Assembly: GCA_934130085.1 (NCBI GenBank)
Contig: CAKOXK010000002.1
Coordinates: forward strand, 97,049-161,048
DNA length: 64,000 nucleotides
Source of the DNA: an uncultured Clostridia bacterium
GTDB lineage: Bacteria > Bacillota > Clostridia > TANB77 > CAG-508
Reading direction: 5' to 3'
Shown: piece by piece, positions 5,448-64,000 of the stretch
How positions within the stretch are numbered: position 1 is the first letter of the stretch
How the letters are laid out: each line of letters starts with the position of its first letter
The notes under the pieces: generated by a model
The model's database searches: none
The model's input: the letters and a program-made list of their open reading frames with translations, nothing else
Told to the model about the DNA's origin: nothing
Position numbers and translations under genes: made by a program

Positions 5448-5478
5448 GACTACAAAATACTGATTACAAAAAAGATTT

Positions 5479-5603
5479 AATATTATGTTGTTCTCGAAGC
5501 CTTGTTCGTTTTTTTCTTCGTTAGTCAAACTTAACTTGCGGAAGAAAAAAACATTCGCGCTACGCTTGATCGCTAACGCGGCTTTTTCGAACAATATAAT
5601 ATT
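5479..5603. repeat. MITE/REP-like structured repeat, copy 2 (A orientation)
   Basis: Same TIRs and core as copy 1 ('...cattcgcgctacgcttgatcgctaacgcggc...'), with stem 'tttttttcttc/gaagaaaaaaa'. It sits between the convergent spoVAE and rplS 3' ends. Confidence 0.85.
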
Positions 5604-5801
5604 AAATCTTTTTATTTTAAAATCTTTATTTATTTTAAAATCTTTATTTATTTCAATATCCATATTAAAATAAATTTTTAGAATTATAATATTAATCCTC
5701 TAATGATTATATATTTAAATTCTAAGCATCAAAACATAACTATGCCAAAAAAAGAATATATATGCAATTATACTTAGCACATATATCCTTTTTTACATAC
5801 A

Positions 5802-12533: not shown

Positions 12534-13469
12534 TTAGTTCTTTATATTCTCAATCTCTTCCTTAGATAATGAAGTAATGTCTTGAATTTCTTCTACTGAG
12601 AAATTCTTTGCTAACATTCTCTTTACAATTTCTTGTTGTTTCTTCTTTTCTCCCAATATCTGCCCCTCTTTTAGACCCTCTCTTTTTCCATCTTCTAATG
12701 CATGAGTAATCGCATTCTTTTCATCCATTATTGCTTTTTCTCTTAATTCTGCTACTCTTCTTAACTCTTCTTGCTGACTTATTTCATCTAAGTTCTGCAT
12801 TGCTTCTTTTAATTCTTTATTGGTTTCCATTGCTTTAAAAACCTCCTCTTGATTAGGATTATCCAAAAACAATACCCACTGTGCCAATTCATTATTTGGC
12901 TCTCTCTCCAGTGTTTTCTTTGCCTTCGATATTTCAATTATATAAATCTGAAACATATCTGTCAATACTAAATTTAAGCCTGTGGTCACCTCTGTTATTT
13001 TCCATTCTGTACATATATTTTCTAGTGCTTTTGTCTTCTCTAATGGAAAATCTATTATTATTATTCCAATTACTTTGTTTAAATCCTGATAAATATTTCC
13101 TTTCTGTAATTGGCTCGAGTAAATTCTGCTCCAATAATACAAGAACCTAGCTTCTGTGTCTTGGTTATCAACTAATTGTATCTCTACATCACATATTCTA
13201 CCATCTCCTAATGTTGCTTTTAAATCCAAAATTCCTAACTTTTCTTCTGGATATTTACCAAAAACGTGCCTGTCATTATCAAGTTTTATATCATTTATTT
13301 TTTCTTTTATTACTGATGATATAAGTGCTTTGGTAATTCCTTCATTTCCCTCTCTAAATAATGAATGAAACACAACATCAATTTTCGGTTTTAATAGCTT
13401 TTCTTTGTTTTCTTTTTCACCTTCATTATTATTGTTTTTCTCTTTAGTTAGATTTTGTTTTTTGACCAT
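12534..13469 (-). CDS. Rpn-family recombination-promoting nuclease / putative transposase (PD-(D/E)XK, YhgA-like)
   Basis: 311 aa with 'IDVVFHSLF', 'LDLKATLGDGRICDVEIQ' and a C-terminal 'EGLKEGQILGEKKKQQEIVKRMLAKNFSVEEI' typical of the Rpn/TIGR01784 family. It borders the variable pilin-like locus. Confidence 0.7.
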   Translation of the reverse strand: MVKKQNLTKEKNNNNEGEKENKEKLLKPKIDVVFHSLFREGNEGITKALISSVIKEKINDIKLDNDRHVFGKYPEEKLGILDLKATLGDGRICDVEIQLVDNQDTEARFLYYWSRIYSSQLQKGNIYQDLNKVIGIIIIDFPLEKTKALENICTEWKITEVTTGLNLVLTDMFQIYIIEISKAKKTLEREPNNELAQWVLFLDNPNQEEVFKAMETNKELKEAMQNLDEISQQEELRRVAELREKAIMDEKNAITHALEDGKREGLKEGQILGEKKKQQEIVKRMLAKNFSVEEIQDITSLSKEEIENIKN

Positions 13470-14059
13470 AAAATACTATCTCCTTTTAATATATTTCTAC
13501 TTGCACAATCCGACTTAAAATATTTCAAAGTATACTGACATTACTCCTGCTCAAATTTATTTCAACTAATTTTATGGGATTCAATATTTAAGATAATTTT
13601 TTATTGTTTAAAACATATATAGAAAGTATATGATGAAATAAAAAAATTGAATAGCAGAGTGTATATAGAATGTACCTCCTTCCCAATCTTTTATTTAAAA
13701 TTACTTTTTTCTTCGCTTGAAAATTTTTCGATTTAATAATTTCTAGATTTATAATTCTTAGATTTAACAATTTCTAGATCTAACAATTTGAATAAATCAA
13801 TTAATTTGATAACACTAAAAAGTTTTAATATAACTAATTTCATCTTGAAATCTTGAAATTCTGAAATAATTTAAGCACAAAATGTACTAAATAGATGGTC
13901 TATTTATAACATATTTTGTGTTCAACGTAAACATTTTATGGTAATCTTTTTGAACTTTCGATTGACAAAATTCGACTTTATTTTTATTAACATATATTTA
14001 TTTACGCATTTAAATAAGTTGTCTAATACAAGTAAAATACAAGTTTATTAGGATACTTT

Positions 14060-14262
14060 TTAATTAATCTTTTAGATTAATTAAAAATTTATAAAAAATA
14101 AATACCATGAAAGCCTAGTAAAATCAACGCACAAAGCTATAGTATAAAAATCGTGTAATAAGAAAAAAAATTTAAAAATTTTTAAGTCAAAACTGTGATT
14201 TATTTACTGTAAGTAAGAGTAACGCGATTTTTACTTTTTAATTAATCTAAAAGCTTAATAAA
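14060..14262. promoter_or_regulatory. Invertible DNA element Inv1 (25-bp IRs flanking a ~153-bp segment), in FLIPPED orientation relative to Inv2-4
   Basis: Left IR 'ttaattaatcttttagattaattaa' (14060-14084) and right IR 'ttaattaatctaaaagcttaataaa' (14238-14262). The internal segment 14085-14237 is the reverse complement of the segments of Inv2, Inv3 and Inv4 (for example 'catgaaagcctagtaaaatcaacgc' versus 'gcgttgattttgcaaggctttcatg'). Confidence 0.8.
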
Positions 14263-14300
14263 AATTTACCTTCAAACTTCAAAAAGAGCCATATCATTTT

Positions 14301-14348
14301 GTACTGAAACCAAAAAACATCTAATCTTTAGTTTCAGTACATTTTATT
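14301..14348 (+). terminator. Plus-strand intrinsic terminator directly outside the right IR
   Basis: 10-bp perfect stem 'gtactgaaac...gtttcagtac' followed by 'attttatt'. It is part of a ~185-bp direct repeat shared with 15707-15890. Confidence 0.6.
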
Positions 14349-19624: not shown

Positions 19625-21880
19625 CTATTTAGCAACTTGTAGGACTGGACGAAGCCCACGGCACGAAGAGAGGACGTCGGTGGTAGAAAGGAACACATAG
19701 TCCGCGGTAATAGAGCCACTGCTTGAAACACAGCGTAAGAGGAAGTTAGCGATGCTCCAACGCGCATTAACGCAGCGAGACGAAAGCCAAAATTCAGCGC
19801 CAGCGCTGATATTACTTGTATTTCTGTTTGCTCCACCACCCCAACAAGCATTGTATATAACTTTTAACCAAGGATTACTTGATTTTTTATCGTTATTATA
19901 TCTTTCGTAAGCATAGTTTCCTTTTTGGTCTGTTGAAAGCCAATTGCTTGCGCCACTTGTGCTCATATTATATGATGTTATTTTTGCATCTGAATATCCT
20001 TTGCTTGCTCCTTTTGTTTTATCAATGTTCTCATATTGTGTAAATAGTGTTGGTGCATAGCTATTCCATGTTGATGTTATTTTATTTGGCGCACTTTTAT
20101 CATCTGCATTTGTTGTCCATAAGTTGCCAAAGTTACTTAATTTACTTTCATCTATGAAATCTTCCCATTTTGCATCACGTGCTAACACTACCTTTACTTT
20201 TTTGGTTTGTCCGTTCTTTAACTTTATTTCTGTTAAATTTCCATATAAATTATTACAGATTGTATCTAAAGCTAAAACTCCATTATTATATGCTGGTGCT
20301 CCTGTTAATCTTACCTGTAATTTTGTTGCTCTATCTGCTATATAGTAATCATATTTACTTGTATCAAATGAGCCTGATTGTAAATCATATCCGCCATCTG
20401 TTAGTTTTGACCATGTCATGTCTGATTCTACTGTTGGCAAACCTGAATTTACTTTATTTACTGACTTTATATCTTTTCCAAGTAATGTTGCTATTGAATC
20501 TGCTTTTACATATCCATGTGCTTCGCTTCCACTCTTAGTCTTATAGAATCTATCTACATTTACTGTTGCACCTACAGATGTGTCTGATACACTGTCTGCT
20601 GAAACTGTTATTACTGGACGTAATGAACAGCTTCCACTTCCATTAGAACCTGATGTTGCATAGTTCTGTCCTACTGTAAATAATGTATACGACGACCTTG
20701 CTCCATCTGTCCTTGCATAACCTAATTGGTAAAAATCTCTTGATAGCTCCTCTGAATATGGTGTTTTTCCATCTGACCCGCTATTCCAATCATAATATGC
20801 AGATCTTGTTGCAAGCCAATAATTGTTTCCTGTATTCATCATGCTTACTGTTGATTTATTTGTTCTGTTTAGATTTGTAATTGTTGGTGATGTATTTGCT
20901 GCTAGCATTTGTGTGTTACTTGATTGAGAGGCTGATGTATTTGCTATATCAATATAATCACTTATTTGGTCTGTTGAGAAACCATGATTTGCTGTATCTT
21001 TTTGATTTATTATTGGTTCTATCTTTCTATTGTTTTGGTAAGCTCTTGATACAGAATATGTTACATTATAAAAGTCTTCCGCATTTACACTTCTTGCTGA
21101 TAATACTTTCTTTCCATTAATCTCTAGGTTTCCATATAACTTTGAGCAAATTTCATTTAGTGCTTTTACACCATTTGTATAGCCATTAATTCCTGATATT
21201 GAAACTTCAAATCCTGTATTGGTATTTGCTATTAGGTTGACTGTTCCATCTTCATTTGTACTTAGTACTTTCCAGCCTAAGTCCTCTGTTTCAATCTCTC
21301 CTGCTTCTACCATTGCAATTCCTGGTACATCTTGATTATCATTACTTAGTACTTGCTTTATATGTCTGTTTACTCCTTTGCCATCGGTTTTTCCTATATA
21401 TGTGAATGTTCCATCATCTAGATTTACCATGTAATTGTGACCTTTATACGCTACTTGAGCATATCCATCTCCATTATTTAAGAAGTCTTCAACTTCGCCA
21501 TTCCCTAAATCATCTTGTATATAATCAGCCAATCTTTTATTTTCATCTTCTGCTTTTGAAACCTCTAAACTTGCTAAGTACATACTCATTTCATCCTCGG
21601 CTGATGCCTTTTCTGAAACTACTACCGCGTTTTTTGCCTTTCCAAGAATTCCATCATTGCTTACCATACTTATTGTTATACCTGCTAAAACTAATAAGAC
21701 AATAATTGTAACTACTAAAGCTATTATTGTTATTCCTGCTTGTTTTAATTTATAGTTTTTCAATTTATACTTTTTAAATTTTAATTCATTTATAGAATTT
21801 TTCATACACTCGTTTTTACTTAATTTTAAGCTTTTTTCATCATACCTCATTTTTGCTTTTTCTCCTTTAAAATCTCTCAA
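19625..21880 (-). CDS. Large pilin-like surface protein, paralog 2
   Basis: 751 aa with N-terminus 'KQAG|ITIIALVVTIIVLLVLAGITISMVSNDGILGKAKNA'. Near-identical to paralogs 1 and 3 except the N-terminal leader, a patch around residues 355-410 and the C-terminal VR. Confidence 0.7.
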   Translation of the reverse strand: MRDFKGEKAKMRYDEKSLKLSKNECMKNSINELKFKKYKLKNYKLKQAGITIIALVVTIIVLLVLAGITISMVSNDGILGKAKNAVVVSEKASAEDEMSMYLASLEVSKAEDENKRLADYIQDDLGNGEVEDFLNNGDGYAQVAYKGHNYMVNLDDGTFTYIGKTDGKGVNRHIKQVLSNDNQDVPGIAMVEAGEIETEDLGWKVLSTNEDGTVNLIANTNTGFEVSISGINGYTNGVKALNEICSKLYGNLEINGKKVLSARSVNAEDFYNVTYSVSRAYQNNRKIEPIINQKDTANHGFSTDQISDYIDIANTSASQSSNTQMLAANTSPTITNLNRTNKSTVSMMNTGNNYWLATRSAYYDWNSGSDGKTPYSEELSRDFYQLGYARTDGARSSYTLFTVGQNYATSGSNGSGSCSLRPVITVSADSVSDTSVGATVNVDRFYKTKSGSEAHGYVKADSIATLLGKDIKSVNKVNSGLPTVESDMTWSKLTDGGYDLQSGSFDTSKYDYYIADRATKLQVRLTGAPAYNNGVLALDTICNNLYGNLTEIKLKNGQTKKVKVVLARDAKWEDFIDESKLSNFGNLWTTNADDKSAPNKITSTWNSYAPTLFTQYENIDKTKGASKGYSDAKITSYNMSTSGASNWLSTDQKGNYAYERYNNDKKSSNPWLKVIYNACWGGGANRNTSNISAGAEFWLSSRCVNARWSIANFLLRCVSSSGSITADYVFLSTTDVLSSCRGLRPVLQVAK
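19628..19796 (-). other. Putative DGR variable region at the 3' end of paralog 2
   Basis: Same A-depleted GC-rich block. It retains AAY-type codons (aat, aac, aac) exactly where the other two copies carry substituted codons. Confidence 0.75.
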
Positions 21881-21918: not shown

Positions 21919-21943
21919 TTAATTAATCTTTTAGATTAATTAA
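21919..21943. repeat. Solo inverted-repeat site (A'-type) between paralog 3 and paralog 2; no partner IR, no invertible segment
   Basis: 'ttaattaatcttttagattaattaa', identical to the left IR of Inv1, lies 39 bp upstream of the paralog-2 start. The downstream 'aaactattttattgatatgtctttt' resembles the tail of the 185-bp repeat. Confidence 0.7.
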
Positions 21944-22019
21944 AAAATTTAAAATCAAATTCTATAGCAAACGACATATTATTTAAAACTATTTTATTGA
22001 TATGTCTTTTCCTTATATT

Positions 22020-42718: not shown

Positions 42719-42871
42719 TCAAATTTGCTTTCTTATTTTACTTTAAAATTAAGGCAATGTCAATAATTATGTAAATTTATTGGATGCAAGTGCGTGCAAA
42801 TTGCATTTAACTTTTTACTTGACGTTCAAATAATGTAGGTTATTAAATTCCAACAACCTAAAAAGCACTTT

Positions 42872-42996
42872 AATATTATATTGTTTTTCATGCCTTGTTC
42901 GTTTCTTTCTTCATTAGTCAAAATTGACTGTCGGAAGAAAGAAACATTCGCGCTTTGCTTGATCGCTAACGCGGCATTGAAAAACAATATAATATT
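42872..42996. repeat. MITE/REP-like structured repeat, copy 3 (A orientation)
   Basis: The TIRs are intact. The stem variant 'tttctttcttc/gaagaaagaaa' is a compensatory change relative to copy 1. Confidence 0.85.
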
Positions 42997-43039
42997 AAAG
43001 TTCTTTGTGTTCTATTTACCTTTATTTTAATGCTGCATA

Positions 43040-51006: not shown

Positions 51007-51041
51007 AACAAATCCTTTCTATATCCTTTCTATATATATTA

Positions 51042-51166
51042 AATATTATATTGTTTGAGAAATCCGCGCAGCGATCAAGCGTAGCGCGAATGGTGCAATC
51101 TTCCGAAAGTTAGTATTGACTAACGAAGATTGCAGCGAGCAAGGATTCGAAAAACAATATAATATT
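51042..51166. repeat. MITE/REP-like structured repeat, copy 5 (B orientation)
   Basis: It reads as the reverse complement of the A copies ('...ccgcgcagcgatcaagcgtagcgcgaatggtgcaatcttccg...cgaagattgcagcgagcaagg...'). A truncated half-copy follows at 51183-51240, overlapping the recJ 3' end. Confidence 0.85.
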
Positions 51167-51237
51167 TAATATTAATTAATTCATATTGTTTCGGAAAGCC
51201 GCGTAGCTTACATGCGAAGTGCGAATGGTGCAATCTT

Positions 51238-55539: not shown

Positions 55540-55636
55540 ATTAAAAATCCTCCCACTAAGCTTTTTGTTTAATTTTATGATGGAGGGGTTCAATATATTC
55601 ATGAAATGCAGCAAAATTGATTAGAAAAAAAACTTT

Positions 55637-55761
55637 AATATTATATTGTTTAAGAAAGTCGCGCAGCGATCAAGCGAAGCGCGAATGGTGCAATCTTCCG
55701 AAAGTTAGTATTGACTAACGAAGATTGCAGCGAGCAAGGCTTCGAAAAACAATATAATATT
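55637..55761. repeat. MITE/REP-like structured repeat, copy 6 (B orientation)
   Basis: Near-identical to copy 5. Confidence 0.85.
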
Positions 55762-55933
55762 AAAGCTTTTTTAAATAATAAAGTTAATTTTCTCTTTTCA
55801 TATAAAACAAAAGGGCAAGTCATCTTAAAGAAAACCAAATTTAATACTTTTAGTTTTATTTAGAATGACTTGCTTTTTACGAAAGTTTTTGTATAAAACA
55901 TTTTTGCATTATAAATATTTATCATGTTTAGGT

Positions 55934-56233
55934 TTAAACAGATACCGCTCTTTCTCTTTTAACTTTTTCTGCTGGTGGTACTAGTGGGCTATAACCAGTG
56001 CCATCAAAAACATCGACTTCAACAGTTCTAGTTAAAACATCTTTGTATTGATATGAGACATTTCTTTCGTTCTCTTCATACTTAACCACAAAAATATTGG
56101 GATAAGCCTTCTCAATAGTAGCTTCTTTTTCAAACAACTTACTTCTTCCTAATGATCCTTTTACAATTATCTTTTGTCCGATTTTCTCTTTAATATTTGA
56201 CTGTAAATTTAAAATATCATCTTGGTAAATCAT
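55934..56233 (-). CDS. veg: Veg protein (DUF1021; biofilm/sporulation-associated)
   Basis: 99 aa. 'IKEKIGQKIIVKGSLGRSKLFEKEATIEKAYPNIFVVKYEENERNVSYQYKDVLTRTVE' matches the Veg consensus. Confidence 0.8.
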   Translation of the reverse strand: MIYQDDILNLQSNIKEKIGQKIIVKGSLGRSKLFEKEATIEKAYPNIFVVKYEENERNVSYQYKDVLTRTVEVDVFDGTGYSPLVPPAEKVKRERAVSV

Positions 56234-56390
56234 TTTATTTCACCTGCTTTTCTTAAGATGATTGTATGCTATCATTTTTTTGCTAAAAAGTCAAAGAGAA
56301 TTATGTCGAGTTGTGTCGTAACATGTTAAGTTTTAAAGGTTTAGCGCTTTTATTACAATTGCATTACATTGTGTATTTTTGAAATTTTTA

Positions 56391-57431
56391 TTATTTTATA
56401 TAAATATTGGGGTTAACGTACTCATCATCTTTAAGCATTTCAAAGTGTAAGTGCGCTCCATCTGCTGTTTCAAAAACTCCAGAGTTTCCAATCTTTCCAA
56501 TTACATCTCCTTGTTTTACTTCTTGATTTTCTTCAAGACCATCTCTTGTTCCAAGTAAGCACGAGTATACAGTTTTAAAACCATTTTTATGCTCAATTAT
56601 AATACTTGTACCATAACGTGGATCATTTTTAATTGATTTTATCGTGCCTGATTGTGTAGCTCTTACTTCTTGATACATCTCACCTTTTATATCAATTCCT
56701 CTATGAGTAATCCACTCTTGCAAAGTATCTGAATAAACTAGACTATCCATTGAATATGTCCTTATTATCTCTCCATTACAAGGTTTGATAAAGGAGTCGT
56801 CAGTTGAAGAACCTTCACCTGCATTGTCATTGGAATCTACATTTTTCTCTACCACAACATTTGCTTTCACACTTGCATTTACATTTACATTCGCATTTGC
56901 ATTTTCGATGTCATCATCTTCTAGTTCAAAATTTGATAGCTCATTTCCATCGTTATTATTATTCTCTTCGTTGTTTTCTGTAGAAGTTTGTTCAATATTT
57001 GTTTTCTCACTATTATCTGATAAGTTTGTTGAATTTTTGTTACTGTTTTTTCTCGAATTGCTACTTGCTTCATTACTATTTTCTTTAACGGCCTTTGAGC
57101 TACTTGTCTGTTTTGTTTCTTTGTTTAACTCGCTATCACTACTTGTATTATTTTCTTTTGCACCATCAGTTTTATTCGCATTCTTTTTTTCTTTCACCTC
57201 ATTTATATTTTTACTAATATCTGAACTTGCAATTTTAGTAATATTCGTTTCAGAATTTTCAATCCTTGCTAACCTATCAGCTTTTTCTTGTTTCATTGAA
57301 AGAAAAATTGCTATTGTAAGAAGCACTATCGAAATAAGAAAACCTAACATGCTCAACGCTTTTCTTTTTTGGCTAAAAATTTCGACTTTTTCTTGCTCTT
57401 TCTTACTGTCTTTTTTATTTACTTCACGCAT
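56391..57431 (-). CDS. Membrane-anchored M23 (LytM-type) peptidase with long low-complexity N/E/S-rich linker
   Basis: N-terminal TM 'LSMLGFLISIVLLTIAIFL', then a ~170-aa low-complexity region. The C-terminal 'GDVIGKIGNSGVFETADGAHLHFEM' carries an intact HxH. Confidence 0.8.
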   Translation of the reverse strand: MREVNKKDSKKEQEKVEIFSQKRKALSMLGFLISIVLLTIAIFLSMKQEKADRLARIENSETNITKIASSDISKNINEVKEKKNANKTDGAKENNTSSDSELNKETKQTSSSKAVKENSNEASSNSRKNSNKNSTNLSDNSEKTNIEQTSTENNEENNNNDGNELSNFELEDDDIENANANVNVNASVKANVVVEKNVDSNDNAGEGSSTDDSFIKPCNGEIIRTYSMDSLVYSDTLQEWITHRGIDIKGEMYQEVRATQSGTIKSIKNDPRYGTSIIIEHKNGFKTVYSCLLGTRDGLEENQEVKQGDVIGKIGNSGVFETADGAHLHFEMLKDDEYVNPNIYIK

Positions 57432-57590
57432 AGTAAATCCTCCTAAAAATTACTAATAAGATTATTACCAACTTTTAGGAGGTTATACAATTAATTAATT
57501 TTATTTCTAGACTTTTCCCTTATTTTGTATTAAAATAAAGACTATATTTTAAATATAAATTTTTAATAAAATGTAGAAAGTGAATGTATT

Positions 57591-58220
57591 ATGGTTTCTA
57601 AAAATAAAGCCTATTTAATTTATCAAAAATTACATGAAGCATATCCAAATTCAAAATGCAGCCTCGATTTTCAAACTCCGTTTGAGATGCTGGTAGCTGT
57701 TTGTTTATCTGCTCAATGCACTGATGCACGTGTAAATATCGTGACTAAAGACCTGTTTAAAAAATATCATACACCAAAAGATTTTGCCGAAGCTCCTTTA
57801 TCTGATATAGAAAAAATGATTCATTCTTGTGGTTTTTATAAAAATAAGGCTAAAAATCTTAAAGCTGCTGGAATGAAAATTCAAAAAGATTTTAATGGAG
57901 TAGTTCCAAATTCATTTGATGAATTACTTTTAATTCCTGGGGTTGGAAGAAAAAGTGCCAATGTTATTATGCTTGAAGCATTTGACAATCCTCAAGGAAT
58001 TGCTGTTGACACTCATTGTAAACGTTTAGCTAATAGATTGGGACTTTCACATGAAAGCAATCCATCAAAAATTGAACAAGATTTGTTAAAAGAGTTTCCA
58101 AAAAGCAATTGGAAAAATATTAACCACTTATTTATAGACCATGGTAGAGCAATTTGTCATTCGAAAAATCCAAATTGCAAAGATTGTGTATTAAAAGATA
58201 TTTGTGATTATAACCTATAA
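57591..58220 (+). CDS. nth: Endonuclease III
   Basis: 209 aa with the HhH-GPD 'LIPGVGRKSANVI' and the 4Fe-4S cluster 'CHSKNPNCKDCVLKDIC'. Confidence 0.92.
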   Translation: MVSKNKAYLIYQKLHEAYPNSKCSLDFQTPFEMLVAVCLSAQCTDARVNIVTKDLFKKYHTPKDFAEAPLSDIEKMIHSCGFYKNKAKNLKAAGMKIQKDFNGVVPNSFDELLLIPGVGRKSANVIMLEAFDNPQGIAVDTHCKRLANRLGLSHESNPSKIEQDLLKEFPKSNWKNINHLFIDHGRAICHSKNPNCKDCVLKDICDYNL

Positions 58221-58271
58221 ATTTATTTTAGATATAATAAAATTCTAAAGCCAATAAAATAATTTCTATTT

Positions 58272-58320
58272 AAAATCAGAGCTTTCTTACTCTTTGTAAG
58301 TTTTGCTCTGATTTTTAATT
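58272..58320 (+). terminator. nth intrinsic terminator; homologous to the hairpin inside invertible element Inv4
   Basis: 'atcagagc-N22-gctctgat' followed by 'ttttt'. The ~75-bp block 58262-58340 matches 60455-60530 inside the Inv4 segment. Confidence 0.6.
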
Positions 58321-58361
58321 TTTATTTACTTTATAAAAAGTTTATTATTATATCCTACATA

Positions 58362-60351
58362 TTATGCATCCCAATATATTCCTCTTTCACCAATAGAAAG
58401 TCCCCATGGTGCATCTGCTATTGAATCTTTTTTCTTTGGTATGTGTACCTCCTTCAAATTATTGCAACTTTCAAATGTTCTTCCATTTAGGCTCTTAATT
58501 GATTCTGGTAAATATAGTTTTGTTAATTTATTACATCCCATAAAAACTTGATTTTCTATTGTTTGTACATCTTTATTAAGTTTCAAATCTGTCATTTCAT
58601 ATTGATCTGCAAAACAAAATGCATAAATTCTTGTTATACCACTTTTTAACGTAAATTCTCCTTTAATTTTATATAATACAGAATAAATTATTTTATCATC
58701 TTTTGAATACAAAATATCATTTTCAACTTTTAAATAAGGATTATCATTTGATACATTTACTTTTACTCCAATTGAACCTCTAAAAGCCCATGTTGAAAAA
58801 TTTTTTACTTTGCTTCCAATATTTAATGTTTTTACCTTTCTACCGGCTGTTGATGTAATAGCTGCTCCAAAATATGTTACTGTATCAGGAATATTTATTA
58901 CTGTGGCATTTAAACAACCTTGAAATGGATAGTCACTATTAATTGTTTCAACTTTTTCAGTTAATGTTATTTCTGCTGCATCAGAAAAACAATATACTAG
59001 ATTTATAGGAGATTTTTTGGTATAAATACATTTTTCACTTACTTTAAAGTTTTCATTTTTATCATCTATAATAATGTTTTTAAGTGTTTTAGGATATTTT
59101 GAACCAACTTCAGGCAATTTTTCAATTGATTGTGGTACCTTTAATGTTGTTATTTTTAAATTACTAAAATAAGTATCAAACTCCTTCGTTCCATCTGGAA
59201 TACTAAGTTCTGTTTTGCCTTCATAATATTTACTAGATAAAAAAACAATTTTTCTATTTTCTCCTTTAGTTTGTAGCATACCGTTACTGTATTCATAACT
59301 TGCGTTGCTAGGATCTATTTTTATATCTACTAGGGATTTGCACTTTCCGAATGCTTCTGAAGAAATATTATTTACTTTTTTGGTTATTTTTATATTTTTT
59401 AAATTTACATCATTATAAAATGCACATGCTGAGATTGTTTCAGTATTATTCCCATCAAATGTCACATCATTTAGTTTTGTACATGAATGAAATGTTCCGC
59501 CAACCTAAGTATTTTATTTGTGGAGGAATATTTACTTTTTCAAGTGTAGTACATGCATAAAATACTTGATTACCTAAATAATTTAATGAGCATGGCAATT
59601 TTATTTCTTTTATATTTGTGCATCCCTGAAATGCAGCACCTCCTAATCCTTCACATCCTTCGACAGTTCCATCAGAATTTTCTTTTGTTTCAAATATTAC
59701 TTCTTCAATTTCTGCATTATTATAAAATGCTTGTGCTTTTATTTCTTTGCATGAATACGGAATTACTACCTTCTTTAATCCTGCTGTATTTGAAAATGCT
59801 CCTGCTCCTATTGATGTTACTGTTTCTGGTAAAGTTAGTGTTCCTTGACTATCCATTAACATTAAGTTTGTTTCTGATGATTTTAGTTCTCCTCCTTCAT
59901 CTATGTTGTATGGATTTATTTCTATTCCTGATGTTTTTGCTATTTCTAACATTGCTTTATCTTGTGATTTGTATAGTAGCTCTCCTTTTATTACTTCAAA
60001 ATTATCTATATATTCTTCTTTTAAGTCTTTTATTATTGTTTTTATATTTCCACCTTGTTTCTTTTCTTCCTCTGTTTTGGTGTTATATGTTAATGAATCT
60101 TTTCCGGCATTTAGGCTTTCTATATAAAAGTTTTCATTTGATATTATTTTTTCTGTTTTATATAATTCAAATTCTTCACTATACTTTGTAAAGTCAACTA
60201 TTATGGCTGCTTTTTTCGTTTTTGATAATAATCCATTGTTACTCAATGTTTGTGTTAATGTTATTCCTGCTATTATTAACATTACTATTATTGTGATTAC
60301 AAGAACGATTAATGTAATTGCATTTTCTGCTTTATTTTTAGAGCTTTTCAT
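58362..60351 (-). pseudogene. Pilin-like N-terminus fused to BspA-type leucine-rich repeats; split by an apparent +1 frameshift near 59497-59505
   Basis: The upstream ORF (59467..60351) has 'AENA|ITLIVLVITIIVMLIIAGITL' and LRR_5-like 'SIGAGAFSNTAGLKKVVIP...AFQGCTNIKEIKLP'. The downstream ORF (58362..59465) continues the same repeats. The junction frame reads 'IKYLGGGTFHSCTKLNDVTFDG' if one T in 'aggttggcgg' is removed. Confidence 0.6.
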
Positions 60352-60420
60352 TTTTTAGTTATCTCCTTATAAAATCTAGCAAAGCATTGGTATTACTGAG
60401 CTTAACGTGCTTTTTCATTT

Positions 60421-60623
60421 TTAATTAAGCTTTTAGATTAATTAAAAAATAAAAATCAGGGCTTCCTTACTCTCTGTAAGTTTTGCTCTGATTTTTAATT
60501 TTTATTTACTTTATAAAAAGTTTATTACACAATTTTTACACAGGCTGCGTAATCATTGATTTTACAAGGCTTTCGTGATATTTTAGCATTGTTAAATTTT
60601 AATTAATCTAAAAGCTTAATAAA
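60421..60623. promoter_or_regulatory. Invertible DNA element Inv4 (orientation X), upstream of the LRR pilin-like gene
   Basis: IR-A 'ttaattaagcttttagattaattaa' (60421-60445) and IR-B 'ttaattaatctaaaagcttaataaa' (60599-60623). The segment is homologous and co-oriented with Inv2 and Inv3. It contains a strong bidirectional hairpin 'aaaaatcagggc...gctctgattttt'. Confidence 0.8.
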
Positions 60624-60726
60624 AAAGTTGATAATCTTGTTTCTAGACTTTTCCCTTATTTTGTATTAAAATAAAGACTGTATTTTAAATATAATTTTTT
60701 AATAAAATGTAGAAAGTGAATGTATT

Positions 60727-60927
60727 ATGGTTTCTAAAAATAAGGCCTATTTAATTTATCAAACATTACATGAAGCATATCCAAATTCAAAATGCAGCCT
60801 CGATTTTCAAACTCCATTTGAAATGCTGGTAGCTGTTTCTTTTTCTGCTCAATGCCCTGATGCACGTGTAAATATCATGACTAAAATATCATACACCAAA
60901 AGATTTTTCCTAAGCTCCTTTATCTGA
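60727..60927 (+). pseudogene. Truncated duplicate of the nth 5' region (part of a ~340-bp duplication 60641-60976 of 57505-57868)
   Basis: 'MVSKNKAYLIYQTLHEAYPNSKCSLDFQTPFEMLVAV' is ~95% identical to the nth N-terminus, including its upstream leader. A 28-bp internal deletion and loss of homology after 60976 truncate the copy. Confidence 0.75.
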
Positions 60928-61052
60928 TATAGAAAAAATGATTCATTCTTGTGGCTTTTATAAAAATAAAGCTAAGAATTATTAATATTAAAGTACAAAA
61001 AAGAACCTGCCTTTTTATATGACAGGTTCTTTCTTAGCATTTTTCACTTAAA

Positions 61053-61607
61053 CTAAAAAATAATTCGTATCGGATCTGTTATTACGTACTCTTTTATGTT
61101 ATACATCTTTAACAGTTTACTAGCATATAAATATATCTTAGCAATGTATTTGGAAAGGTTCTCAATATAATCTACAGCAAATATACTTTCTCTAGTATTA
61201 ATATTTTTTTCATTAAGACTATGTACACCTGTCTTAATTTGAAGAACAGCATTCCCATTTTCATCATTAGAAAAATGTGCAAATGTAGTAAATAATCCAA
61301 CTTGTATTTGGTTTATTTCAACATAGCAAGCACATAATTCATCACACCGGTGTATCTTTACATTTATTTCCTTGATATAGTCGCTCATCCATCTTGAAAC
61401 TCCAGGAAACTCATATTTCCTCTCTAAATATACAATTATTTGTAAATCATCAACTATGTCATCATTAATATGTATTGCCTTTTCTTCCTTCGTAAAATTT
61501 TGATCTTCCTTTATTGCCTTTATCAACCTTTTCAAAGATGTGGTAGTAACCTTGTTTGATGGTTCCCAACACTCAAATTGCTCTACTCTAAGTTCATCAT
61601 CAAACAT
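61053..61607 (-). CDS. Hypothetical protein
   Basis: 184-aa ORF with no recognisable motifs. Confidence 0.35.
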   Translation of the reverse strand: MFDDELRVEQFECWEPSNKVTTTSLKRLIKAIKEDQNFTKEEKAIHINDDIVDDLQIIVYLERKYEFPGVSRWMSDYIKEINVKIHRCDELCACYVEINQIQVGLFTTFAHFSNDENGNAVLQIKTGVHSLNEKNINTRESIFAVDYIENLSKYIAKIYLYASKLLKMYNIKEYVITDPIRIIF

Positions 61608-61869
61608 AATATCTCCTCCTTCTTTAAGTAAAAAATGTTATAGCCATAAATAAATGGCTTTAGTAATAATACAATTACAGTCAAATTATAACACTTTTAA
61701 ACGTATAAATCAATTATGTAAAGTTCTTGAGTGGATTATAAATATTGTAAAGTCGTTAACCCTTTACTAGAATTTATTCTCTTGATTAAGCTTAAAAACT
61801 TATATGTCTGTCATCATTTTTATTTTAGATTTCTTCTTATTTTTTTAGTGATTACTATCTTTTACGTTT

Positions 61870-63966
61870 TTATATTAAAGTGACTCTGAATCCTATATGA
61901 TAAATATTATAACCATTAACTCCTAAGAAACCAAACATTCCACATTCATCTGCTTTTCTATAGCTTCCACTTCTAATAAAAAATGGTGCCTCCTGTGCTG
62001 GAAATTGGGATACTCCTGAGTACCATGACGATATATCTGTTCCTTTAGTTGAGGTTTCTCTTATTGCATCTCCATATATTTTACTACTAGCTTCATAATT
62101 AGCTTGACTTTTTTTGTCATTTGTATCTGTGGAACTGGTTTCATTACTTGGATAAACTGTTGTATATTTAGTACTTTTATCTCCATCTTGCGTCATACTT
62201 GCCCCGAATGTGCTTCTCGCCCATGAACCAGTTGAATTATTTATATATGCAGCAACTCTTTCCCAGGTTCCCCCACGCATATCATATACTCCATAAATAT
62301 TTCCAGTGGTTGATGCCGAATTACCTCTTGTTATAGTTGCATCATTCCATACTTTTCCCTCATTATTATATCCTGTCCCCGCATACACATGAGTTGCAAC
62401 CCCAGAATTATTGAAGTTCTTATTATTTGTTGCTATTTCAGTCTTTTCTAATCCATACCAACTTTGACTTAAATAAACTACTGCTCCCCATTCGCTATTT
62501 TTTATTAGGTGGCTATCTGTATCGCTTGCTAATCCATAAATATTTCCAGTAGCAGTTAATTTTTTTGGTAACAAGTATGCATCATTTGGGCTTATGTAGT
62601 TCATAGAATAACTGGATCCTTGGAACGTTGGATATTTAATTGAGGTAGTTGTTGCTCCATATATTCCATCTACATGGTTTCTGGCAGTTACCCAATAGTC
62701 ACTCGTTACAGTTGGGTTTTCTGTTTTTGCAATATCCCATGGTGCCCATACTTTTGAATAGAAATAATTTATTTCACTTGATACATTACATTTATTCGCT
62801 GTTACATTTGCTTTTAATATTCCATCATCTTCCTTTATTGCATAAGCTGCTTCAAATTTTGCAACCCATATTCCATACAATTCTGAATCCCATCCACCAT
62901 TTCTGTATCCTATTGAGCTTTCATTTGTAAATGCTGGATGAACTGTGTAACCTGTTGTTGTATCAACTATGTCATTTATTGATTGGCAACGTTTTGCTGT
63001 ACCCTCTTTCCCATTATCGTCATAATATTTGTCTGTTAATCCATCTAGAAATACTATACTTGTCGTTCCTTTTTGTTCTTTATCTGATGAATCAGGCTTG
63101 TTTATTCTATATGCAAACCTTGGTATCCATACCCATAAGCTACCATCTTCTGTTCTTGCATTTGCCCATCTTTTTTCACAATAATTATACCAATTTGCAT
63201 CGTCTGCAGTTGTCGTAACCGTTTTTCTTTCACCTTTTCCGTTTGTTACTTCAAATTTTACTGGAGTCATTCCTTTCTTTAACACAGGTGTATTTGCTCT
63301 ACACTTTGTATTCATTGTAACTTTTGTATAAGCTTCTGGAAGTCTATAATAAATGTATTCTTTTCCAGATGCACCACTTTTATATTTAACTCCCTCTGTA
63401 TAATAAATGGTTCTACTTTCTCCATTTATAATATATACATCTTTTGTATTTAATTCAGTTAACATTGCACTTATTCCATAATTATTATTTCCATAATTTA
63501 AATCAGCTAATCCAATTCCATATTTAGATTTCAAATTCTTTTTAAGCTTACTTGCGTCTATTACATAGTAATCTTCTTTGTCATTTGGATTTTTTACTAC
63601 ATCCTTTGAAGTTTTTTGTGCTCCAATTTCACCTTGATTAATATATAAAAATGAACTTGAACCTGTGTCTCCTGTATACCTTGGACCTATTTTTGAAATA
63701 TTGTCATTCTCTCCATATACTTGTGAAATACTTTCTTCTAGATTTGTTATGTCATTTTTTAACTTTGTAAATTTATCTGTCTCACTAACTGTTTTTATGT
63801 TTGAAATACAAGGAATTGCAATCATCATAAGAACAACAATTGTTACAGCCATTGCGACTAAAGTTACCCCAGATTCTTGCTTTCTATCTTTGTTAATTGA
63901 TTTTCTATTGTTAATACAATTTTCACCGCTTATCTCAATATTTTTTATTCTTTCTAAAGTTTTCAT
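61870..63966 (-). CDS. Pilin-like N-terminus fused to an FGE-sulfatase (formylglycine-generating-enzyme-like, C-type-lectin fold) domain
   Basis: N-terminus 'KQESG|VTLVAMAVTIVVLMMIA'. The C-terminal half has FGE-family motifs 'NIYGVYDMRGGTWERV' (compare GLYDMSGNVWEW), 'RSGSY' and a terminal 'IGFRVTLI' (compare GFRCV). Confidence 0.65.
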   Translation of the reverse strand: MKTLERIKNIEISGENCINNRKSINKDRKQESGVTLVAMAVTIVVLMMIAIPCISNIKTVSETDKFTKLKNDITNLEESISQVYGENDNISKIGPRYTGDTGSSSFLYINQGEIGAQKTSKDVVKNPNDKEDYYVIDASKLKKNLKSKYGIGLADLNYGNNNYGISAMLTELNTKDVYIINGESRTIYYTEGVKYKSGASGKEYIYYRLPEAYTKVTMNTKCRANTPVLKKGMTPVKFEVTNGKGERKTVTTTADDANWYNYCEKRWANARTEDGSLWVWIPRFAYRINKPDSSDKEQKGTTSIVFLDGLTDKYYDDNGKEGTAKRCQSINDIVDTTTGYTVHPAFTNESSIGYRNGGWDSELYGIWVAKFEAAYAIKEDDGILKANVTANKCNVSSEINYFYSKVWAPWDIAKTENPTVTSDYWVTARNHVDGIYGATTTSIKYPTFQGSSYSMNYISPNDAYLLPKKLTATGNIYGLASDTDSHLIKNSEWGAVVYLSQSWYGLEKTEIATNNKNFNNSGVATHVYAGTGYNNEGKVWNDATITRGNSASTTGNIYGVYDMRGGTWERVAAYINNSTGSWARSTFGASMTQDGDKSTKYTTVYPSNETSSTDTNDKKSQANYEASSKIYGDAIRETSTKGTDISSWYSGVSQFPAQEAPFFIRSGSYRKADECGMFGFLGVNGYNIYHIGFRVTLI

Positions 63967-64000
63967 TAAAAAGAACCTCCTTGAAAGTTTCTTTCACAAT

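Follow-up and report, generated by a model that had tools for sequence, protein, structure and literature searches.

In a 64,000-nucleotide stretch of the genome of an uncultured Clostridia bacterium (contig CAKOXK010000002.1; this whole stretch is hereafter the window), the endonuclease III gene nth lies between a peptidase gene on its left and, further to the right, orf184 (Table 1). Between nth and orf184 stand a hairpin, a gene for a leucine-rich-repeat (LRR) protein on the opposite strand, an invertible switch of ~210 bp and a second, incomplete piece of nth, such that the LRR gene and its switch are bracketed by two copies of the nth 5′ region. We read the block at 58.2-60.6 kb as a strain-variable, phase-variable cassette consisting of a split LRR gene of the BspA type with a pilin-like N-terminus, which would be driven by the switch through the promoter and bidirectional terminator that it appears to carry.

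The two nth copies, one intact and one decayed, lie in direct orientation. The alignment pairs 57496-57749 with 60632-60885 and 57761-57857 with 60883-60979 (95% in each case), and homology is clear from TTTCTAGAC (57505 / 60641) to GCTAA[A/G]AAT (57857 / 60979). A first-pass annotation of this DNA had recognised the duplication, which holds; its limits (60641-60976 against 57505-57868) are revised here to 57496/57505-57857 and 60632/60641-60979 at ~95% identity, the repeat spans nth codons 1-89 rather than the ~66 then given, and the internal deletion, put at 28 bp, is 14 bp in our alignment (AAGACCTGTTTAAA, missing after 60882 in the right copy). This deletion is private to the lineage of the window, since the corresponding duplicates in two contigs of the same species (L003 and L044) lack it, and because it shifts the frame, the 66-codon open reading frame (ORF) at 60727-60927 is simply the stretch left open. 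The right copy carries nine private substitutions among 354 positions, including a GAA to TAA premature stop, and is nearest to the nth allele of contig L001 (97.2%), with all differences but one private. Judging from its frameshift, stop codon and private substitutions, the right-hand nth piece is in all probability a decaying relic, as the earlier description of a dead fragment at 60727..60927 beyond the switch had it, and annotators should be warned that the 66-codon 'HhH-GPD' ORF is such a relic. The relics of the window and of L003 differ at two sites only, so there was a single duplication, which is old relative to the diversity of the species. A sequence similar to GTTGATAATCTTG, the linker that joins the outer switch arm to the duplicated nth promoter, is found upstream of the nth promoter in contig L059.

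Table 1 Features of the nth locus and related switches in the window
Feature	Position	Strand	Remarks
Left copy of the direct repeat	57496..57857	+	nth promoter, leader, codons 1-89
Intact nth, endonuclease III, 209 aa	57591..58220	+	TIGR01083, 241 bits (cut-off 211.7)
T_a, copy of the terminator module of the switch family	58272..58347	.	Hairpin core 58272-58316
LRR gene, C-terminal ORF, 367 aa, BspA-type LRR_5	58362..59465	-	Pfam LRR_5, 4.5e-33
LRR gene, N-terminal ORF, 294 aa, pilin-like hydrophobic N-terminus then LRR_5	59467..60351	-	Pfam LRR_5, 5.4e-22
Invertible promoter switch, ~210 bp	60418..60626	.	Arms 60418-60456 and 60588-60626; T′ at 60452-60527
Linker, outer switch arm to duplicated nth promoter	60627..60640	+
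Right copy of the direct repeat, dead nth 5′ relic	60632..60979	+	Residual ORF 60727-60927
Junction of relic and orf184 flank, AAGAAT	60974..60979	+	In nth codons 88-89 and in native sequence downstream of nth
Native terminator hairpin	60996..61036	.	Common to nth and orf184 in empty-site strains; -21 kcal/mol, - strand
orf184	61053..61607	-	Conserved right-hand neighbour of the locus
Further switch with arm TTAATTAAGCTTTTAGATTAATTAA	14058-14264
Further switch with arm TTAATTAAGCTTTTAGATTAATTAA	15527-15733
Further switch with arm TTAATTAAGCTTTTAGATTAATTAA	19298-19503

We compared the window with ~30 contigs of the same species, retrieved by exact-protein look-ups with nth, Veg and YunB; labels of the form L0xx denote contigs, those from these look-ups being human-gut metagenome contigs 93-98% identical to the window, and gene orders are given in window orientation throughout. 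The same bracket was assembled independently in ERZ27287143 (L003/L048) and in ERZ28753917 (L044/L054), with L044 colinear with window positions 55900-64000 at 97.6%. The bracket is real, heritable and strain-specific: it recurs in independent metagenome assemblies, and the comparison of related genomes at nth revealed neither an assembly fault nor the same arrangement without duplication boundaries. Other searches reached less far. No strain other than that of the window was retrieved by exact-protein look-ups with orf184, the peptidase or the LRR N-terminal ORF, and the best relatives from a scan of GTDB genomes with the nth protein were at most 72% identical, none of them sharing synteny; same-species genomes with the other class of nth (see below) were probably missed in that scan because the peptide patterns were specific to the allele class of the window. 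A scan of JGI metagenomes with the LRR 3′ end produced a single, unrelated match of 31 nt, the only Rfam matches were three tRNAs, and a literature search turned up no description of the switch family or of the organism.

At least five arrangements of the locus occur among the same-species contigs. (i) The commonest is an empty site, with the order peptidase, nth, orf184 (L045 and five similar contigs, L057 and seven, L060 and L061). (ii) In the forward type (L046, L047, L051), the peptidase gene is followed by ~200 nt, the switch, the LRR gene on the + strand, 114 nt, a 219-aa nth allele (81% amino-acid identity, P0029) and orf184; the cassette in L046 and L047 is 96.6-96.9% identical to that of the window, and it is inverted and stands to the left of nth rather than to the right. 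(iii) The window type, shared by the window, L003/L048 and L044/L054, runs peptidase, nth, hairpin, LRR gene on the - strand, switch, nth 5′ relic, orf184. (iv) A 3′-relic type (L001/L056, L002) matches the window type through the switch and continues with 67 nt, the last 265 nt of the other nth allele, and orf184. (v) In L059, an intact 701-aa LRR paralogue with its own switch stands between peptidase and nth, and the contig ends inside a reverse-strand LRR gene; the insertion (L059 2718-6225), which follows the M23 peptidase and precedes nth, comprises the paralogue with its diverged switch together with a peptidase_S51 gene and a 191-aa ORF. Landing sites are therefore found on either side of nth. 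Both haplotypes with the cassette on the reverse strand combine an intact nth with a relic on the orf184 side, which is a 5′ part in the window, L003 and L044, and a 3′ part of the other class in L001 and L002.

The 3′ two-thirds of nth fall into two deep classes, one of which, the N-class, is represented by the intact gene of the window. Wherever an N-class 3′ part was seen in a contig, the spacer and terminator at 58221-58361 come next and the reverse-strand LRR gene after them; the other 3′ class is always followed by orf184. The 5′ parts reassort freely among haplotypes. The nth gene of empty sites is itself a mosaic, combining the window-type promoter and 5′ end with the 3′ end of the other class, as expected if two flanking nth copies recombined.

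The forward and window-type cassettes are homologous over a stretch with exact limits, the stop codon of the LRR gene (58361) at one end and the distal switch arm (60634) at the other. At the left end, the junction of the left repeat with the peptidase side in the window is identical to that of the empty-site haplotype. At the right end, the relic joins the orf184 flank at a microhomology of 3-6 nt (AAGAAT), and this junction is readily read as a microhomology deletion or join. In the 3′-relic type, the 67 nt past the switch are the reverse complement of the sequence preceding the switch in the forward type (L046), and the join to nth is at GCAGAAAAAG, the inverted form of which, CTTTTTCTGC, lies in the upstream sequence of the forward type; this looks like the trace of an inversion, between inverted microhomologies of 10 bp, by which the nth on the orf184 side was split. 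Neither of these two junctions is at a recombinase site and none is demonstrably the work of the invertase, and together they point to microhomology and homologous recombination rather than to the invertase. The proposal in the first-pass annotation that the LRR gene and its switch were inserted or translocated thus receives support from the empty sites and from the inverted, relocated cassette, but not in its further claim that homology near nth was used, given that the junctions are at microhomology.

The switch is a short segment between inverted repeats, as in invertible promoters, with arms of 39 nt that are 90% complementary and 131 nt apart. A candidate promoter (-35 TTGATT at 60556-60561 and TG-extended -10 TATTTT at 60579-60584) was picked out by eye on the strength of the consensus and of the TTGATT-17-TGnTATTTT pattern that the switch copies conserve. 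In the window, this promoter points along the + strand and away from the LRR gene, which we read as the OFF orientation, and window-type contigs show OFF only. L046 (OFF) and L047 (ON; here the promoter faces the LRR gene with its ribosome-binding site and ATG) have one cassette in common, with the switch interior flipped between them; this is direct evidence that the switch flips, and both orientations are present in natural populations. The switch belongs to a family, since its arm sequence (TTAATTAAGCTTTTAGATTAATTAA) occurs at nine places in the window against none expected, with four copies ~90% identical to the 60.4-kb switch in a relative, L065, and one in L066, each upstream of a gene. 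Complete copies have a hairpin module beside one arm and the conserved promoter beside the other, and the terminator module is present in every copy examined (three in the window, four in L065 and one in L066). A solo, near-palindromic arm lies at 21919-21945 upstream of a 751-aa pilin-like gene (19625-21880) and looks like a collapsed switch, because the second arm and the promoter module are absent. The 14-kb switch (14058-14264) is opposite in orientation to the other three in the window; its promoter points at a transposase-family gene of the PD-(D/E)XK type (PDDEXK_2, Rpn-like; 12534-13469) ~590 nt away, and the 14-kb and 15.5-kb switches have duplicated sequences on their right. A scan of 30 ORFs of the 64-kb window found no recombinase of the tyrosine or serine type.

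The hairpin following nth, T_a, is closely related to the hairpin module within the switch, T′: 73 of 76 positions are identical between 58272-58347 and 60452-60527, and a 44-nt pattern of this block occurs at two places in the window only (0.00 expected by chance). The homology had been noted before, as 58262-58340 with 60455-60530, and stands with these corrected boundaries. T_a and T′ are both predicted to fold strongly (-21.5 and -24.6 kcal/mol, z ~ -7.5), with A-run/U-run flanks on either strand; for T_a the values are -21.5 kcal/mol on the + strand and -20.5 on the - strand (z -7.7 and -7.0), and the predicted fold at 58272-58316 is a stable stem-loop followed by a U-run, as in intrinsic (Rho-independent) terminators. 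T_a lies 51 nt past the nth stop and 14 nt past the LRR stop, which suggests a bidirectional terminator shared by two convergent genes, and most likely it terminates both transcripts. In L045, L046 and L001, the native terminator hairpin lies directly 3′ of nth. In L003, an insertion (13446-14327, corresponding to window position 61022 onward) with a reverse-strand ORF of at least 276 aa interrupts this native hairpin between relic and orf184, and may be an insertion sequence.

A frameshift of 1 nt near 59502-59503 divides the LRR gene in two, identically in at least 14 contigs (14+) and across all haplotypes. Paralogues that are 84% and 61% identical are likewise interrupted, in the same repeat of the LRR, each needing a +1 shift (L065 8876-8995; L066 3412-3425). 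The 701-aa paralogue in L059 is unsplit. Both halves are open, with ratios of non-synonymous to synonymous substitution (dN/dS) of ~0.2 for the N-terminal ORF and 0.35-0.66 for the other. Rather than marking a dead gene, the split could be a two-ORF design under selection or a case of programmed +1 frameshifting. The switch-controlled ORFs of the window share the N-terminus (A/S/E)G(I/V)T(I/L)I.LV.TII.LL..GITI, which is hydrophobic; prepilin N-termini have a G followed by F/x-T-L-I-E and a hydrophobic helix, and the Glu at +5 is missing from these ORFs; they have no match to the pilin models of Pfam or NCBIfam. At window positions 59102-59195, nt 270-363 of the LRR C-terminal ORF differ densely from all other strains, which suggests gene conversion from a paralogue or compensating indels.

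Given these haplotypes and junctions, we propose, as the simplest way to cover them all, that the bracket is a fossil of the arrival of the cassette beside nth by way of a stage with two nth copies, of which the redundant one was later destroyed, and that T_a is a copy of the switch module; we would give this account about an even chance. The cassette would initially have been placed beside the nth on the orf184 side. A second nth would then have arrived on the peptidase side, leaving an intact N-class copy there and another copy next to orf184. The redundant orf184-side copy would finally have been disabled differently in each lineage: in that of the window, a microhomology deletion from codon 90 onward would have left the promoter and 89 codons, which subsequently decayed, and in its sister lineage an inversion at 10-bp microhomologies would have left only the 3′ part of nth. 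Recombination between the flanking copies would have yielded the mosaic empty site. The invertase, presumably encoded outside the window, would flip the interior of the switch only. The earlier annotation suggested past inversion or cassette shuffling that moves switch-controlled genes around the chromosome; nothing shows the bracket to be an active or programmed rearrangement, and it is an old inherited haplotype.

Several observations weigh against this account. Among the ~30 contigs, all reached by exact-protein look-ups, there is none with two complete nth copies, and since the two-copy intermediate was not observed, we infer the order of events. The nth alleles are heavily mosaic, which weakens arguments from linkage. 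At informative sites the relic is N-class-like and hence not simply the resident allele of the orf184 side, so that gene conversion or a true intragenomic duplication must be added, and the L001-type haplotype needs at least two events. The arrival of T_a is not explained by any single observed junction, with its left flank weakly arm-like (p ~0.016-0.05). A simple terminator pattern scan did not call the T_a hairpin, probably because of its internal loop, and the activities of both promoter and terminator are predictions from sequence.

A single dispersed duplication is the alternative that survives best, although we consider it unlikely. Here, an ancestor with the order peptidase, nth, terminator copy, LRR gene on the - strand, switch and orf184 would never have held a second complete nth; one template switch during replication would have copied 353 bp comprising the promoter and 5′ end of nth, and 76 bp of the switch would have been copied separately. 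The affinity of the relic to an N-class allele of the same species (the nth of L001, as given above), the short microhomology at the right junction and the failure to see a two-copy haplotype all fit this scenario, but its relic-free ancestor was not seen either, and it explains neither why a 3′ relic from the other class of nth occupies that place in the sister haplotype nor why the empty-site nth is a 5′/3′ mosaic.

T_a may derive from the adjacent switch or from a second switch since lost. With 96% similarity to the neighbouring switch and 94.7% to the switch copies in L065, it is about as close to the latter, and need not stem from the adjacent one; the first-pass annotation was thus right that the nth terminator is a copy of a switch module, and less so in placing its origin in the adjacent switch. 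It is conceivable, if rather improbable, that T_a is the stump of a former second switch after nth, truncated on its right at the boundary between terminator and promoter and with its arm decayed. Apart from its similarity to the L065 copies, its right boundary TTTATTA|CACAATT falls within a family-conserved stretch, as truncation would have it, a weak arm-like motif precedes it, and L007 holds nth, terminator block, promoter and arm in one piece. However, the arm-like motif falls short of significance, L007, a k-mer assembly of 2.4 kb, may have crossed the 52-nt run that the two copies have in common or may represent a deletion product, and a stump would be compatible with the two-copy account rather than exclusive of it. 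The spacer after nth (58221-58271) aligns locally to the switch arm with scores of 25 to 30; as a decayed arm it reaches p ~0.016 against random window segments and 0.05 against AT-rich ones, and it was not relied on. In L007 (2224-2447; a Logan contig), nth, a T_a with single-nucleotide polymorphisms of its own, and the promoter and arm of the switch are joined directly; the LRR gene may have been deleted between the two 76-nt hairpin copies, or the contig may be a k-mer chimera formed across the identical run of 52 nt.

Movement by the invertase itself appears less probable again. The switch recombinase would pair an arm with secondary sites near nth and thereby invert or transpose whole cassettes in a gene-scale shufflon, with the nth and terminator copies as by-products. 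The homology of the inverted cassettes does end at the distal arm (outer half-site AGCTTAATAAAA in the window type against AGATTAATTAAA in L001 and L046), the solo palindromic arm at 21919-21945 shows that sites can remain behind, and just past nth there is an arm-like TTTTAGAT..TAAT..AAAA. Yet conservative site-specific recombination does not create duplications of 353 bp or 76 bp, no site can be recognised at the opposite cassette boundary (the LRR stop codon), the resemblance to an arm past nth is not significant against an AT-rich background (p ~0.05), the sole junction readable base by base is the 10-bp microhomology outside the arm, and no recombinase gene was found among the ORFs scanned in the 64-kb window. 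It is similarly a long shot that the switch and its gene form a mobile module, with an invertase acting in trans to pair the arm with sites in the nth promoter or at the nth 3′ end; if true, cassettes would land preferentially at the nth locus, and the duplicates of nth and terminator would mark repeated rounds of such shuffling. A simple Campbell integration of a circle with an nth 5′ fragment was rejected, as it would place the truncated copy upstream of the intact one and the opposite is seen, as was a single inversion from the L046 type to the window type, for nth has the same orientation in both. That the bracket is a collapsed or mis-joined repeat can be virtually discounted, since, although some contigs do stop at repeats (L006 and L010 within the terminator block, L049 and L058 at the switch arm), ~5% of positions and an indel set the two nth copies apart, the relic carries mutations private to it, and different assemblers recovered the structure independently from at least three samples.

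Further variation surrounds the locus. To the right of orf184 lies a 698-aa pilin-like gene (61870-63966), which empty-site strains lack, glmS following orf184 in them; in L001 (16442-16696), beyond the end of the window, this gene has a switch of the same family upstream. The locus therefore holds a second strain-variable cassette. Elsewhere in the window, a second repeat family is present at 5469-5613, 42862-43006, 51036-51172 and 55626-55772, with terminal inverted repeats of 26-30 nt (TTTAATATTATATTGTT) and a GC-rich interior of ~90 nt in a genome of 30% GC. Both orientations of the interior occur among the four copies, the spacer between Veg and SipL that holds one of them varies in length between strains, and the family has no match in Rfam. 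It could be an element resembling miniature inverted-repeat transposable elements, or another invertible element.

Collectively, the locus offers a base-level natural history of a phase-variable surface-protein cassette that has been gained, flipped, moved and lost at one site in one gut species. A housekeeping gene next door can be duplicated and later eroded in the course of such moves, and part of the switch can be co-opted as an ordinary terminator. The mechanism is not new; the structural polymorphism and its rearrangement scars are informative on how phase-variable loci evolve, and they bring to attention a multi-copy family of switches with promoter and bidirectional terminator in uncultured gut Clostridia.

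In its behaviour the switch resembles known invertible promoters, among which it is best placed. In Clostridioides difficile, invertible switches (cwpV, flgB, cmrRST) are flipped in trans by RecV. To our knowledge, the arm TTAATTAAGCTTTTAGATTAATTAA is unrelated to the C. difficile arms. Shared with these switches are a segment of ~150-200 bp flanked by inverted repeats and placed upstream of a surface-protein gene in Clostridium, the presence of several copies per genome, and a recombinase gene that does not adjoin the switch; with cwpV, a terminator as part of the logic. The present segment differs in holding, as predicted, both a promoter and a bidirectional hairpin, its copies are ~90% identical to each other, the controlled genes have a pilin-like N-terminus in common, and its inversion is read from contig sequences. 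The C. difficile switches have been the subject of a genome-wide survey (PMC5903667).

The invertible promoters ('invertons') of capsule loci in gut Bacteroides and fimS of E. coli (PMC10403206) likewise turn surface structures ON and OFF by promoter inversion, with both orientations found in natural populations; they differ from the present case in phylum, arms and cargo, and the finding here concerns the scars around the cassette rather than the switch. With genomic islands and Campbell-type integrations the locus shares an accessory segment bracketed by direct repeats of part of a housekeeping gene, one copy of which is intact, and an empty site elsewhere. The duplicate here, however, is the 5′ part of the gene (promoter and 89 codons) rather than a 3′ end or an att core, and in contrast to Campbell integration of a 5′ fragment, the intact copy is upstream of the insert, in reverse order. 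The bracket contains the 3′ part of nth, the hairpin, the LRR ORFs and the switch, and no integrase or recombinase gene; its repeat is 353 bp long and ~95% identical, in place of an att core, and ends on the right in microhomology with the orf184 flank. It is not an island of the integrase type. The closest parallels for the junctions are inversions and deletions by illegitimate recombination at microhomologies, with the sister junction at a 10-bp inverted repeat and the relic junction at AAGAAT; the difference is that, of the presumed inversion, one junction survives and the reciprocal one would have been overwritten.

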